The notes below the pieces were generated by a model. That model ran no database searches. It worked only from the letters and a program-made list of their open reading frames with translations, and was not told the origin of the DNA. The position numbers were made by a program, and so were the translations under genes. Shown one piece after another: positions 14,865-18,044 of a DNA stretch of 64,000 nucleotides. Source of the DNA: a virus (lineage: Duplodnaviria; Caudoviricetes); IMG/VR virus record IMGVR_UViG_3300028888_000007, positions 21,502 to 85,501 of that record; one strand, 5' to 3'. How positions within the stretch are numbered: the stretch's first letter is position 1; every line of letters starts with the position of its first letter.

Positions 14865-15899
14865 ATGGCTTACTCAGAAAACCCTTCTAGGGTAATGGTG
14901 TTCCCTGATGGGAACTCCGGTAACGGTAACGTGCCAGCTTGGGTCCTTCCATTTATGGGTGGAAACTTTGGTAACAATGGTGGCTTATTCGGTGGTAATA
15001 ACGGTTGGGGAGGTGGAATCCTCGGCTTCCTACTTGGCCTGATGTTCGGTAATGGAGGTTTTGGTAACTTCTTCGGTGGGAACGGATGGAACAATGGGAA
15101 TGCCGGTGCAGGATTCCTCTCTAACCAAATCAACAATGACTCTGGTCGGGAATTGTTGATGAATGCTATTGTTTCTCAAGGCGAGCAGGCACGTACCGCT
15201 ATTCAGACTTTGAGCACTATGCTCGGTCAGGATTTCAATCTGGTCAACGGAGCAGTTCAGACAATCCAGACAGCAATCAATCAGATTGCTAACAATCAGG
15301 GTCTGAATGCTATGCAGATCATCAACTCTATTCAGAATGGTACTTGTACTCTCGGTCGTCAGATCTGTGAGTGTTGTTGCAACATGCAGCAGACCTTCAA
15401 TCAGGGTGTTAATACTCTGGAGAATGGTATGCAGGCTGGTTTCAATGGCGTCACTCAGGGTATCAATGGTATTCAGAACCAGATGGCAATTAATCAGGGT
15501 CGTGAAGAGCTTGGTCGTTGCCAGCAGACTTACACTCTCACAGAGAACAATAATCAGGGTAATCAGAGAATCCTTGATAAGATTTGTGAAATGCAGACCC
15601 AGAATCTGCAGGATAAGCTGGAGAAAGTTCGTGATGAGAACACGGTACTCCGTGGAACCATTAACACAGAACGTCAGACCCAGCAGTTTGGTGCTATGCT
15701 GAGTCAGGTAATCGCTCCTATTCAGGCTCGTATGCAGGTACTGGATGACAAGATTGATGGTATTGCTGCTAAACAGCCTAACACTGTCCCTGTAGTTTAC
15801 CCTAATCTGGTAGCAGTTCAGCAGAACCCTTATTATGGTTGTGGCTGCGGTGGCTATAACTATGGAGGCTGCGGTTGTAATGATGGTTTCTTCGGTTAA
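14865..15899 (+). CDS. Gly/Asn-rich, Gln/Asn coiled-coil protein with CECCC and a GCGC-rich tail (cassette gene 1)
   Basis: GGNNGWGGGILGFLLGLMFG; QICECCCNMQQ; C-terminal YYGCGCGGYNYGGCGCNDGFFG. Confidence 0.85.
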   Translation: MAYSENPSRVMVFPDGNSGNGNVPAWVLPFMGGNFGNNGGLFGGNNGWGGGILGFLLGLMFGNGGFGNFFGGNGWNNGNAGAGFLSNQINNDSGRELLMNAIVSQGEQARTAIQTLSTMLGQDFNLVNGAVQTIQTAINQIANNQGLNAMQIINSIQNGTCTLGRQICECCCNMQQTFNQGVNTLENGMQAGFNGVTQGINGIQNQMAINQGREELGRCQQTYTLTENNNQGNQRILDKICEMQTQNLQDKLEKVRDENTVLRGTINTERQTQQFGAMLSQVIAPIQARMQVLDDKIDGIAAKQPNTVPVVYPNLVAVQQNPYYGCGCGGYNYGGCGCNDGFFG

Positions 15900-15908
15900 T
15901 TAAAAACA

Positions 15909-16277
15909 TTGGTTATCATGCCTCCTATCAACATAAATCAGAGAAGAGGTTGGATTGATGTTATTAAAACTACGGTTGGTACTGAAAACGTTATTCTTAC
16001 GTTGCCTAATGGGACGTTTAGGTGGCGTAGACCAATAGGTTATGTATCGGTTCGTCTTAGTACTGCTATTGAGGCAACCGATACATTCCCAATCCTATTT
16101 TCAGTTAATGGTGTAACTTTACCTTTAACTGGGTTAAATGGAGTGGCTATAACCGTAGCAGATTTAAGTCAAACCGGTATTTACCTCATTTATTATAACA
16201 AGTCAACTAAGACTTTACAACTGATGGCCCCGTATGCTCCAACAGGAGCTACTGTCACCAATAATCAAGGAAATTAA
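15909..16277 (+). CDS. Small beta-rich hypothetical protein (cassette gene 2)
   Basis: ORF track; TTG start uncertain; GIYLIYYNKSTKTLQL. Confidence 0.7.
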   Translation: MVIMPPININQRRGWIDVIKTTVGTENVILTLPNGTFRWRRPIGYVSVRLSTAIEATDTFPILFSVNGVTLPLTGLNGVAITVADLSQTGIYLIYYNKSTKTLQLMAPYAPTGATVTNNQGN

Positions 16278-16302
16278 GTATTAACAAATCACACCTAGAC
16301 TC

Positions 16303-16839
16303 ATGTTCTCAAACATTAGACAGGGAGTTCCTGTATACCTTTTAGATAAGGTCGGACAAAACGGACCAGTATTAAAGATTGGTCAAGTAGAGCAAGTAAG
16401 TCAGCTGCAGCCTAAACACCAGACATTCACTCCTGGAGTAAACATAGGCTTGCCTAATCTCAATGAGATGGTTATTAATATCCGGGTTAAATTTGATGAT
16501 GGTCCAAGAGACTTTAATCAGGTTCCGGCTAACCTATCTCTGGCAGATTTCAATAATGGTACTGTTATTTCAGATAACCGGGCTGATATGATTTCTGAAA
16601 TTGAGGTGATGGCACAAAACAGTAAGAACATAATCTCTTCAGTTCCTTACCATCAGAAAGTAGTACAGGCTAGTGATTTGATGTTGAAGCAACTGAATCC
16701 TAATTTTGCTAAAGAGGCAGAGAGGGATACTACCATCTCTAACCTCAATCAGAAGGTGGATTCACTAACTGAAAACGTTAATACTCTAGTTAAGCTCTTC
16801 CTTGAAAGTGGTGGGAAAGTGGGTTCTGGTGCTAAATAA
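16303..16839 (+). CDS. Hypothetical protein with C-terminal coiled coil (cassette gene 3)
   Basis: Beta-rich N-half, helical C-half (ISNLNQKVDSLTENVNTL). Confidence 0.8.
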   Translation: MFSNIRQGVPVYLLDKVGQNGPVLKIGQVEQVSQLQPKHQTFTPGVNIGLPNLNEMVINIRVKFDDGPRDFNQVPANLSLADFNNGTVISDNRADMISEIEVMAQNSKNIISSVPYHQKVVQASDLMLKQLNPNFAKEAERDTTISNLNQKVDSLTENVNTLVKLFLESGGKVGSGAK

Positions 16840-16851
16840 CCAGAAGTCAAA

Positions 16852-17166
16852 ATGAAAATTTACGAATTCTTCGATGAAGACTACAATAAGACTGTAGATA
16901 TGGCCGAAGATATTGAGGAGCTTGCAGGGAAACTTGTAAAGTGTCTCAACAAGGCTGAAGAGAGAGAAGGCAATCAGGGTGGTGATATGAACTTCCGTCG
17001 TAGCCCTCGTATGCGTGGCGGTCGGGGTGGTGGACAAGGTAGCTACAATATGCCTCGTATGCGAGGTGGCATTGGTGGCTACGCTGAGGTACCTCCTCAC
17101 ATGCGTGGTTATGTCGTTCGTCCAGAGGATGAAGACTGGATGTATAACGAACGGTACAACTGGTAG
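16852..17166 (+). CDS. Acidic-helix + RGG-rich small protein (cassette gene 4)
   Basis: EEDIEELA-like acidic helix then RRSPRMRGGRGGGQGSYNMPRMRGGIGG. Confidence 0.8.
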   Translation: MKIYEFFDEDYNKTVDMAEDIEELAGKLVKCLNKAEEREGNQGGDMNFRRSPRMRGGRGGGQGSYNMPRMRGGIGGYAEVPPHMRGYVVRPEDEDWMYNERYNW

Positions 17167-17186
17167 GTTTAGAGATCCACAGTCCG

Positions 17187-17220
17187 GGGCAATAGAGGGA
17201 AACTTCTATTGCCCTTTATT
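17187..17220 (+). terminator. Intrinsic terminator inside the cassette
   Basis: 12-bp stem GGGCAATAGAGG-GAAA-CTTCTATTGCCC then TTTATT. Confidence 0.8.
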
Positions 17221-17241
17221 GTTGTTAAACTTATAGAGATT

Positions 17242-17661
17242 ATGAATCTTACAGATTACGAAACATTACCGAGGTCACAACGTATCTATATGATGCACTT
17301 CGGACCTCATTTTAATAAAGCATTGTGCAAGTTCGCAGTCAGTAACATGTTCTTGGATGACGAAGAGCTTCAACCTATAGAGCCTATCACTAAAGAACAG
17401 GTGGACGAAATATTGGCAGCAAATAATATCCGTCTAGCAAACAATAGATTGTACGACTATGTATTTGTTGCAAATATGGGTAAAGCTGACTACATGGGTG
17501 AAGGAGGCTGCCTAGAAGACGAGCAACATTTAGCTAAGTATATCAAAAATGTAATTGATGATCCTGATGCTAGGGAAGGTGTAACCTTTGCAAGGTGGTT
17601 GGCTACTATGGCAGTAAATGGTATAGAGATAGAATGGTCTGACATACTTGATCACTCATGA
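17242..17661 (+). CDS. Hypothetical protein (cassette gene 5)
   Basis: In ORF 17209..17661; ATG 17242 preferred because 17209 lies inside the terminator; HFGPHFNKALC and YIKNVIDDPD motifs. Confidence 0.75.
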   Translation: MNLTDYETLPRSQRIYMMHFGPHFNKALCKFAVSNMFLDDEELQPIEPITKEQVDEILAANNIRLANNRLYDYVFVANMGKADYMGEGGCLEDEQHLAKYIKNVIDDPDAREGVTFARWLATMAVNGIEIEWSDILDHS

Positions 17662-18044
17662 CAACTCAGAGTCTCCAGCTGTATGATTATGGCTGGAGAC
17701 TATTTGTGTTTTATAATATAACAGTAAAGGACTTAGACATAGTATTACCTGCTTTATGGGAAAACGGTTGTAGTAATGAAGGTATTAGAGAAGTAGCTTT
17801 AGCTATCATGAACCCTAACTCTGGATTTACTCACACTCAAGGTAGAACAAGTATAATGGGTATAGGTTGGACTGATTCACCAGAACAGTTCCAGAACACA
17901 TTAACTCATGAGATTAATCATCTTCAGGATGATATATGTATCTACTACGGATTACCATTATCAGGTGAGATACCTTCTTCTATAGTTGGTAACATTGCTA
18001 TGGCTATGTACAAAAGTTCCATAAAGTATTTAAATTATGCCTAG
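17658..18044 (+). CDS. HExxH putative metallopeptidase (cassette gene 6)
   Basis: FQNTLTHEINHLQD followed by GEIP; ATGA coupling to gene 5. Confidence 0.7.
   Translation: MTTQSLQLYDYGWRLFVFYNITVKDLDIVLPALWENGCSNEGIREVALAIMNPNSGFTHTQGRTSIMGIGWTDSPEQFQNTLTHEINHLQDDICIYYGLPLSGEIPSSIVGNIAMAMYKSSIKYLNYA

Follow-up and report, generated by a model that had tools for sequence, protein, structure and literature searches.

A portable six-gene module of Bacteroidales phages with a predicted coiled-coil rod protein, a DUF7841 protein and a predicted minimal zincin-like metallopeptidase

The stretch of DNA considered here (the window, 64,000 nucleotides) covers positions 21,502 to 85,501 of the IMG/VR record IMGVR_UViG_3300028888_000007 and is part of an 85.5-kb phage genome, and the sequencing runs in which it was found are from sheep and cattle gut. 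The system in question is a block of six genes, g1 to g6, located within the morphogenesis region of this phage, which is a myovirus because sheath, tube, tape measure and baseplate genes are present in its map. An earlier note on this DNA had described the block as six co-oriented, tightly packed genes, and all six open reading frames are present on the plus strand (positions are those of the window unless stated otherwise):

14865-18044, plus strand: the six-gene block
14865-15899, plus strand: g1, 344 amino acids
15909-16277, plus strand: g2, 122 amino acids, an open reading frame started by TTG with an ATG three codons in
16303-16839, plus strand: g3, 178 amino acids
16852-17166, plus strand: g4, 104 amino acids
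17245-17661, plus strand: g5, likely started by the ATG at 17245, the frame being open from a TTG at 17209
17658-18044, plus strand: g6, 128 amino acids

The gaps between consecutive genes from g1 to g6 are 9, 25, 12, 78 and -4 nucleotides, the start of g6 overlapping the stop of g5 (ATGA), and g6 itself overlaps the next gene, which has a weak tail-completion/Neck1-like match, by 8 nucleotides. The protein features that the note had listed are likewise found, namely the G/N-rich N-terminus, Q/N-rich helical part, CECCC motif and GCGC tail of g1, the two PRMRGG repeats of g4 and the HEINH motif of g6, as are the palindromes it had placed upstream (an 11-bp inverted repeat and a palindrome near 14806-14826). 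Its placement of the block between head-closure and neck genes has to be corrected: upstream it is preceded by an SGNH-tipped fibre gene and a tyrosine recombinase gene with one small gene between them, and neither flank has a head-closure gene. The statement that the six proteins match no standard virion function holds, since scans against Pfam, PHROGs, NCBIfam and PADLOC led to no family of known function. NCBIfam returned no match for any of the six proteins and the PADLOC defence models no hit at E <= 0.1. A feature search of the ESM Atlas gave unnamed viral clusters only. In PHROGs, g1, g2, g3 and g5 fall into families of unknown function (g1, PHROG 16490, 1e-30; g2, PHROG 31654, 1.6e-20; g3, PHROG 28898, 1.7e-24), and the only Pfam family matched is DUF7841, by g5 (PF25223, E 2.5e-25; 89.4 bits against a gathering cut-off of 25.2).

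The six genes constitute one travelling unit, a portable accessory module of Bacteroidales phages, because their fixed order recurs in two independently seeded censuses. The first was seeded with g3 in the viral contigs of IMG/VR and used iterated hidden Markov models (HMMs) on 96 loci, and the second was seeded with g5 in bacterial genomes, with one genome per prokaryote species, and comprised 57 loci. Homologs of g1, g2, g5 and g6 were present in 86, 81, 89 and 86 of the g3-seeded loci, respectively, and homologs of g1, g2, g3 and g6 in 49, 48, 49 and 44 of the g5-seeded ones. The order g1-g2-g3-(g4)-g5-g6 was found in 69/96 and 35/57 loci, and the exceptions in the first census are mostly contig ends or genes split by TAG recoding. 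Both censuses combined represent ~77 lineages at a cut of 85% g5 identity, and with this same-order co-occurrence the proposal in the earlier note that the genes form a dedicated system has withstood the gene-neighbourhood survey.

The genomes that carry the block are myo-, podo- and sipho-like and hold it at varied positions. For instance, tblastn searches of deposited phage genomes identified the six-gene layout, with similar gene sizes, in the crAss-like podophages cr271_1, cr272_1, cr273_1 and ctcc615, in Dulem virus 40 and in several unannotated gut phage contigs. In the cultured Bacteroides uniformis phage C3_41T2LP the block is located among replication genes (SSB, RecT and resolvase), and in the crAss-like genome L010 (IMGVR_UViG_3300037684_000001) it adjoins a putative terminase-like gene. 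Some block loci lie on contigs of 0.8-1.7 Mb and are therefore prophages. The note had mentioned similar gene sets in phages of gut Bacteroidales and Firmicutes; an occurrence in Firmicutes phages is not borne out, as the six loci from cultured isolates are all in Bacteroidales (Parabacteroides, Paraprevotella and Segatella) and the 16 loci that are labelled otherwise all come from metagenome bins. A search with g3 only found no homolog in crAss001, and the block therefore does not appear to belong to the core crAss gene set. Reduced versions exist in Parabacteroides phages, which possess g1-like and g3-like genes and a fused g4-g5 and are without g2 or g6; in Parabacteroides phage PD691P6, the g5 homolog carries g4 as an N-terminal fusion. 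L010 has in-frame TAG codons at conserved positions of g1, g2, g3, g5 and g6 and reads TAG as a sense codon, probably for Gln, and in the crAss-like loci recoded in this manner (TAG=Q) g4 is located between g2 and g3. Gene fragmentation like that of L010, the one locus that was retranslated, is also seen in L023, L043, L060, L063 and L065.

Homologs of g1 are ~300-360 residues in size and share a common order of parts: a conserved N-terminal peptide, a Gly/Trp-flanked hydrophobic stretch, a Gly-rich linker that varies freely in length, a helical region and a tail. The helical region is bounded by the motifs GRxLLMxAI and KLPxTVxVPYP (KQPNTVPVVYP in the window), and the low-complexity tail consists of 25-54 Gly, Ala and aromatic residues and usually ends in FWG, the window version being rich in Gly, Tyr and Cys and ending in FFG. 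In an alignment of 37 diverse sequences, M1 and the CCC motif (C170-C172) are the sole invariants. When the length of the rod was compared across 54 lineages, the distance from LLM to CCC was mostly 67 residues (32 lineages), with 60 (6 lineages) and 71 (4 lineages) as the other values, and the distance from CCC to PxT was 117 residues in 27/39 lineages and otherwise 99, 106, 110, 124 or 128. Insertions and deletions in the rod occur only in steps of 4, 7, 11 and 18 residues, steps by which the phase of a coiled coil is kept, and within the alignment of 37 sequences, what one sub-segment gains the next loses (60+53 = 67+46 = 113). Because of this quantisation, the g1 rod is predicted to be a continuous, phase-constrained α-helical coiled coil with a preferred length of ~184 residues, corresponding to ~27 nm (184 residues x 0.15 nm), and with free ends; the Gly linker and the tail vary freely in length. 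A length of ~27 nm is of the order of the Gram-negative periplasm. That the length is constant across differently shaped phages points to a constraint set by the host.

A hydrophobic 13-mer is found in g1 of every lineage, with a median Kyte-Doolittle value of 2.26. The segment lies at about residues 51-63, is Gly-flanked and ~13-16 residues long, and has neither flanking positive charges nor a positive-inside signal. Cysteines account for 0.45% of the residues before it versus 3.39% after it, a 7-8x higher density, with a median of 8 Cys after the segment. The protein has no lipobox and no C-terminal transmembrane segment, and no globular distal domain was found on its homologs. Profile searches against the PDB pair the hydrophobic segment with the fusion-peptide end of influenza HEF2/HA2 (E 0.06-0.4) and the rod with heptad repeat 1 (HR1) of coronavirus S2 (E 0.016-0.05), both below significance. 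This weak profile likeness to class I fusion proteins explains why g1 homologs were earlier labelled 'spike protein/glycoprotein' and 'outer capsid protein/viral fiber'. The likeness to influenza HA2/HEF2 and coronavirus S2 extends to the order of parts, namely a Gly-rich hydrophobic peptide, a long heptad-repeat helix, a Cys stretch, a second helical part and an aromatic tail close to the membrane. In contrast to these proteins, g1 has no receptor-binding subunit, cleavage-activation site or C-terminal transmembrane segment, belongs to a phage and is probably produced within the cell, and E-values of 0.016-0.4 are no evidence of homology. A weak PHROG match connects g1 with tape-measure proteins (8.6e-6). 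The PDB 'hits' to TALE repeats (E ~1e-9) were discounted as summed weak matches, as no single stretch passes.

The note had read the HExxH protein, g6, as a metallopeptidase, and conservation and modelling agree with this assignment. In the zincin core, a small sheet precedes two consecutive helices, the first bearing the HExxH motif and the second a Glu (PMC5512222). Among 15 lineages W13, G56, H84, E85, H88 and E104 of g6 are invariant, with HEINH at 84-88. In the AlphaFold2 model, whose predicted local distance difference test score (pLDDT) is 93.9, the strands end at residue 70, the helix 75-97 bears HExxH and the helix 104-127 opens with E104, which is the layout of a minimal zincin. Sequence and model thus support g6 as a predicted stand-alone, minimal zincin-like metallopeptidase. 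The family comprises 1169 clusters (50% identity) at E <= 1e-3, and the best 150 of the 1169 are all stand-alone proteins of 124-205 residues; a word-index search retrieved close relatives only. No Pfam zincin family reaches its threshold with g6, and membership in Peptidase_M78 (PF06114) was rejected: the best E is 0.014, with hits confined to 4/15 homologs, the window g6 gives no hit and the upstream helix-turn-helix (HTH) genes are not beside g6. Foldseek found nothing below E 0.047 (the top rows being macro domains with a TM of ~0.33), VIA-align no solved structure above a best Z of 4.8, and a profile search of the PDB nothing significant. The g6 homolog of C3_41T2LP is annotated 'PolyVal metallopeptidase superfamily', and this GenBank annotation is the sole link to the metallopeptidases of polyvalent proteins. 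With these and with ImmA/IrrE, g6 shares that it is phage-borne and has an HExxH helix, a Glu on the next helix and a small β-sheet and helices before them (Iyer et al. 2017, PMC5512222). It differs from the PolyVal enzymes in being a stand-alone protein of 128 residues, none of the best 150 of 1169 clusters being a domain of a large multidomain protein. About 6/15 g6 homologs end in a CDC/CxxC-type Cys cluster followed by basic residues; the window g6 and its close relatives are without this cluster.

The best-conserved protein of the block is g5, with 47% identity between the window myovirus and cr271_1. It is acidic (pI 4.6) and mostly α-helical, and its alignment has 11 invariant columns, including N89, M90, D94, D118, D120 and W143. 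The AlphaFold2 model (pLDDT 87) gave nothing below E 2.6 in Foldseek, and its only matches in the BFVD are crAss-like phage proteins that also belong to DUF7841. Searching the PDB with the g5 profile yielded nothing significant. The top VIA-align rows (Z 4.4-3.0) suggested a CE-clan cysteine protease (Ulp1/SENP-like), a candidate that was rejected since these enzymes have a His-Asp-Cys triad in this order, whereas g5 has no invariant His and its one near-invariant Cys, C40, precedes the conserved Asp residues. No proteins of 378-2000 residues match g5, which is weak evidence against fused forms.

The remaining proteins are g2, g3 and g4. g2 is β-rich, with ~110 core residues and a flexible Thr/Ala/Asn tail (alignment of 34 lineages), and its profile found no match in the PDB. 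g3 has an N-terminal β domain followed by a C-terminal helical/coiled-coil region with a conserved LNPxFAKE motif, and its PDB search produced sub-significant coiled-coil matches only. g4 starts with an acidic helix carrying one conserved Cys and continues as a disordered tail rich in R, G, Y, D and E, with repeats of PRMRGG/PHMRGY in the window and MGER/YGER in other lineages. As g4 is too low in complexity for HMMs, its counterparts were judged by position and composition; such a gene (77-109 codons) lies between g3 and g5 in 13/14 further representative lineages, or 15/16 with the window and L011.

A terminator had been proposed in the note after g4, and a hairpin at this site is a common property of the block. 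In the window it occupies 17186-17215 of the plus strand, between g4 and g5, and the terminator scan describes it as a GC-rich, 13-bp stem with a GAAA loop, followed by TTTATTGTTGTT; its minimum free energy is -34.4 kcal/mol (z -4.6). A GC-rich stem of 9-15 bp follows the g4 stop and precedes g5 in 15/16 lineages, with a different sequence each time. The hairpin, whose structure is retained while its sequence drifts, is probably a partial terminator or attenuator and divides the block into g1-g4 and g5-g6. In two studies, metatranscriptome contigs stop at 17182 and 17188, which is no more than a weak hint of termination. Across several rumen studies, metatranscriptome libraries yielded contigs over g1-g6, with sparse coverage of 10.3-14.3 kb and 17.8-20.3 kb; such contigs cannot rank genes, the runs were picked with the window as query and DNA carry-over is possible, hence neither expression levels nor gaps are used as evidence here.

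A natural deletion variant of the block exists. The 41-kb IMG/VR contig IMGVR_UViG_3300021387_000571 (L018/L004/L013) shares 88-92% DNA identity with the window over the deletion flanks and 99% identity in the g5 and g6 proteins. It is without window positions 15028-16525, a clean 1.5-kb deletion that extends from g1 codon 55 to g3 codon 74 and removes the whole of g2, and it retains g4 (with one PRMRGG repeat fewer), g5 and g6. g1-g3 are therefore dispensable, at least for persistence as an assembled population, which fits an accessory role for the block. The region upstream of the block is a hypervariable host-recognition cassette: the stretch between a conserved gene of 183 codons (9688-10239) and g1 is swapped wholesale among close relatives, with different fibre genes (window 10243-14599 compared with L018 3505-8666, L011 4019-7476 and L005 23-2404), and the recombinase is found in the window phage alone. 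A linkage of the block to the tyrosine recombinase was accordingly discarded, as the close relatives L005, L011 and L018 carry the block at the same place without it.

In other phages the block usually ends the late gene block, directly after holin-like and lipoprotein genes, and lysozyme or amidase genes are near it in some loci. Across 60 lineages, ~80% of the upstream genes are co-directional with the block versus ~45% downstream, and small membrane proteins are found at positions -2 and -3 in 40-42% of lineages versus 10-25% elsewhere. A broader measure, any small membrane protein within six genes upstream, was abandoned, as its 33/50 lineages are no more than the per-gene background of ~20% gives. 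The families at -2/-3 are holin_4_1-like (8 lineages), a two-transmembrane family, a small family resembling outer-membrane proteins and a family that, as unimolecular spanins do, combines a lipoprotein signal with a C-terminal transmembrane segment (16 lineages). Position -1 is taken by a small HTH gene in at least 26 lineages, and a tyrosine integrase gene lies just downstream on the opposite strand in 9.

Portability between phage shapes, variable genomic position, the natural deletion and the fixed rod length suggest an accessory function under constraints set by the host, and the periplasm-length rod with hydrophobic ends, the confinement of Cys to rod and tail and the habitual place beside lysis-type genes point to the envelope. 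Hence, we tentatively hypothesize that the block encodes a late, envelope-spanning, spanin-like apparatus with its own protease. This would be a functional analogue outside both known spanin classes and not a member of either, because the block has no lipoprotein partner and g1 neither a lipobox nor a C-terminal transmembrane segment. Of the functions proposed in the earlier note (an outer coat or aggregation matrix, a membrane-inserting assembly or a condensate), the membrane-related one accords best with the new evidence. The block would be expressed late and act on the cell envelope at the end of infection, the short Gly-flanked hydrophobic segment holding g1 in the inner membrane. The ~27 nm rod could then span the periplasm as a Cys-stapled oligomer, with g2 and g3 as stoichiometric partners, and the aromatic, Gly-rich tail of g1 may contact the outer membrane or the wall. 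g4, g5 and g6 would form a processing arm made at lower dose, in which the zincin might cut a component of the module or a tether of the envelope. Subsequently, after the action of holin and endolysin, the assembly would help to breach or fuse the layers of the Bacteroidales envelope.

The closest comparison for such an apparatus is with the spanins, the two-component lambda Rz/Rz1 and the unimolecular T1 gp11. In lambda Rz/Rz1, cysteines in the periplasmic coiled coil form intermolecular disulfides that are required, and spanins are dispensable under some conditions. Similar to spanins, g1 is predicted to have a hydrophobic N-terminus close to the membrane, continues as a long coiled coil of a length on the order of the periplasm and has its Cys confined to the presumed periplasmic part, and the block is often beside holin/endolysin genes and dispensable in a natural variant. 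However, at ~300-360 residues g1 is twice the size of a typical i-spanin and has five conserved companions, including a zincin; many carriers own a separate u-spanin-like gene, and no sequence similarity of the block to spanins was detected. T1 gp11 differs further from g1, which is without its lipobox and C-terminal transmembrane segment.

Several observations weigh against a spanin-like function. In contrast to two-component spanins, the block has no adjacent or embedded outer-membrane lipoprotein partner. None of g2-g6 has a signal peptide or lipobox, and a 131-codon alternative-frame open reading frame in g1 of the window (15307-15702), with a lipobox-like start, was rejected as an embedded Rz1-like lipoprotein, since such frames are present in only 4/54 lineages and at differing places. 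The hydrophobic segment of g1 is short with uncharged flanks, so its insertion into a membrane is uncertain; the envelope localisation of g1 is one that we infer, and its matches to fusion proteins are not significant. A u-spanin-like gene already lies just upstream of the block in 16 lineages, which would make a second spanin redundant. In the window, the block is among virion genes, ~15 kb downstream of a GH73-like endolysin gene and 18 kb upstream of a holin-like gene, and elsewhere its closeness to lysis genes may reflect just a shared position at the end of the late block. Moreover, six genes exceed the needs of any known spanin system, and the roles given above to g2-g5 are guesses.

A second explanation, which is possible and rather less probable, is that the module encodes an undescribed multi-protein machine that is specific to Bacteroidales phages, many crAss-like phages among them, and is unrelated to holin-endolysin-spanin lysis or to known virion parts. 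A coiled-coil 'ruler' of ~27 nm, stapled by Cys or metal, would be its core and be joined by two β-rich partners, a disordered protein rich in Arg, Gly and Tyr, DUF7841 as a new fold and a dedicated mini-zincin, and the machine would remodel or bridge the envelope or build a supramolecular structure.

It is unlikely that the block is instead an accessory set of the virion. In such a set, g1 would be a trimeric, Cys-knotted fibre, for instance a head fibre or collar whisker, whose hydrophobic, Gly-rich N-terminus plugs it into the particle. g2 and g3 would serve as adaptors at its base or tip, g4 would be packaged or act as a scaffold in large amounts, and g5 and g6 would be needed at low dose for assembly or maturation. 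The window phage and its close relatives place the block between fibre genes and the neck/tail-completion gene overlapped by g6, and crAss-like genomes carry it in their tail-gene block; however, across the carriers it is found in myo-, podo- and sipho-like genomes at unrelated positions, which is unusual for a part that has to dock onto a specific particle. An N-terminal hydrophobic anchor followed by a long coiled coil recalls reovirus sigma-1, in line with the 'outer capsid protein/viral fiber' labels on homologs and the weak tape-measure match, and the dispensability seen in the deletion variant is typical of head fibres and whiskers. With phi29 gp8.5, T4 fibritin and reovirus sigma-1, g1 indeed shares a long α-helical coiled coil, an anchor-like N-terminal segment, dispensability and, in the window phage, a place beside neck genes. 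In contrast to these proteins, g1 and its homologs have no distal globular or foldon domain, g1 is accompanied by five conserved genes, and its rod is of constant length across phage shapes, whereas fibre lengths usually vary. A hairpin that lowers g5 and g6 relative to g1-g4 would suit the doses of structural versus catalytic proteins. Against a virion role, crAss001, the sole crAss-like phage with a full structural atlas, is without a g3 homolog, and literature searches found neither proteomic evidence nor a virion proteome of a block-carrying phage.

Still less probable, in our view, is an intracellular assembly or conflict system, either a condensate or matrix formed by the g1 coiled coil with its FG/GY-rich ends and an RGG-type g4, or a group of proteins that are packaged and injected and that the zincin processes. 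The latter form is modelled on polyvalent-protein peptidases and the P1 Dar proteins and would serve host takeover, counter-defence or superinfection exclusion. PolyVal-type zincins have been proposed to process packaged or delivered phage proteins (PMC5512222), and one g6 homolog bears the PolyVal annotation; however, the best 150 of 1169 g6 clusters consist of stand-alone proteins, none of them fused to a large polyvalent protein, and no long fused forms of g5 were found. The ends of g1 are GLFG/GFG- and GY-rich and g4 has RGG and Tyr-rich repeats, which would suit a condensate, but arguments from composition are weak alone, the strict length and phase of the rod are unexpected for a condensate scaffold and the biased distribution of Cys is better suited to an extracytoplasmic rod. 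Movement between unrelated phages is in keeping with accessory conflict genes, the HTH gene directly upstream in at least 26 lineages suggests a separate, moron-like regulation and the integrase downstream in 9 lineages marks the usual place of prophage cargo, whereas PADLOC found no match among defence models.

Finally, it is highly improbable that g5 and g6, perhaps with g4, form a regulatory pair separate in function from g1-g3, in which a sigma-/winged-helix-like g5 would be controlled by g6 in the style of ImmA/IrrE: the hairpin divides the block, the deletion variant retains g4-g6 only, Parabacteroides phages have the g1-like and g3-like genes and fused g4-g5 without g2 or g6, 4/15 g6 homologs touch the IrrE-like Peptidase_M78 (E ~0.01), some g5 homologs are labelled 'sigma factor/ubiquitin-like' and the g5 profile touches TFIIE-beta (E 0.12), yet all these similarities are below significance, g5 is acidic (pI 4.6) and most of the ~77 lineages keep the two halves side by side in an unchanged order, which argues for one function.

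Bacteroidales phages, crAss-like ones above all, are among the most abundant gut viruses of humans and animals, and most of their genes have no known role. Here, six 'hypothetical' genes from unknown PHROGs and one Pfam DUF become one portable module of fixed order in ~77 lineages and three phage shapes. The families themselves were already in databases as unknowns; what is new is the module, its internal regulatory hairpin and its ruler-like core, none of which was described in the literature that we searched, where no paper mentions DUF7841 or C3_41T2LP either. If the module acts on the envelope, it would show how these phages handle the Bacteroidales envelope, for which, to our knowledge, no spanin biology has been worked out; if it is instead part of the virion, it would represent a set of fibre proteins that is exchanged between unrelated particles. 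In addition, g5 and g6 are two small folds that are confidently modelled and have no solved relative. The module can be tested, as it is whole in the cultured B. uniformis phage C3_41T2LP and partial in Parabacteroides phages, and a natural deletion variant exists.

The following genes surround the block in the window:

2129-3628: large terminase
3625-5118: portal
5119-6615: prohead protease
7180-8298: major capsid protein
10243-12864: SGNH-tipped fibre
13556-14599: tyrosine recombinase
18037-18612: tail-completion/Neck1-like gene, weak match
20366: tail sheath
22198: tube
23715: tape measure, with baseplate genes beyond

Acquisition of the block by horizontal transfer could not be read from GC content: the bins at 14-18 kb have a value of 0.40 versus 0.34-0.35 in the flanking bins, and other structural stretches reach 0.39-0.45, hence the measure is uninformative. 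The inverted repeat mentioned above is a perfect one of 11 bp, located between the recombinase gene and g1 at 14671-14681 and 14735-14745 (TCCGGCAAATA and TATTTGCCGGA), and the 53 bp between its arms hold a TAnnTTTG-like motif (TACTTTTG). The repeat may form part of a small invertible promoter or have arisen by chance (rough expectation 0.05-0.1). Just before the large terminase gene, positions 1512-2129 encode a protein of 205 residues with a signal-anchor/lipobox-like N-terminus and an otherwise β-rich sequence, for which no family match was found.

The family with a lipoprotein signal and a C-terminal transmembrane segment may be of interest in its own right. Its members have ~140-220 residues and lie beside holin-like genes in 16 Bacteroidales phage lineages (for example, L009 4657-5070, L134 6781-7380 and L035 6342-7016), and they are candidate spanins of these phages. 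In the window phage, a simple scan for hydropathy and lipoboxes brought out no clear u-spanin-like gene with a lipobox and C-terminal transmembrane segment. This phage has scattered lysis genes, its holin-like gene being far from the endolysin gene. The former (36042-36545) encodes three transmembrane segments, is akin to the Phage_holin_4_1-type neighbours of the block elsewhere and overlaps the start of a tail-collar fibre gene (36535-37881). The latter, a GH73-type glucosaminidase-like gene named by eye, is a probable endolysin gene at positions 20874-21422 of the genome (C1), that is, -627 to -79 relative to the window. It is overlapped by a gene of 114 codons (genome 21403-21747; window -98 to 246) whose product has an HExxH motif of its own (HEYTH) and a hydrophobic stretch, and homologs of this gene are found near the six-gene block in four other lineages.

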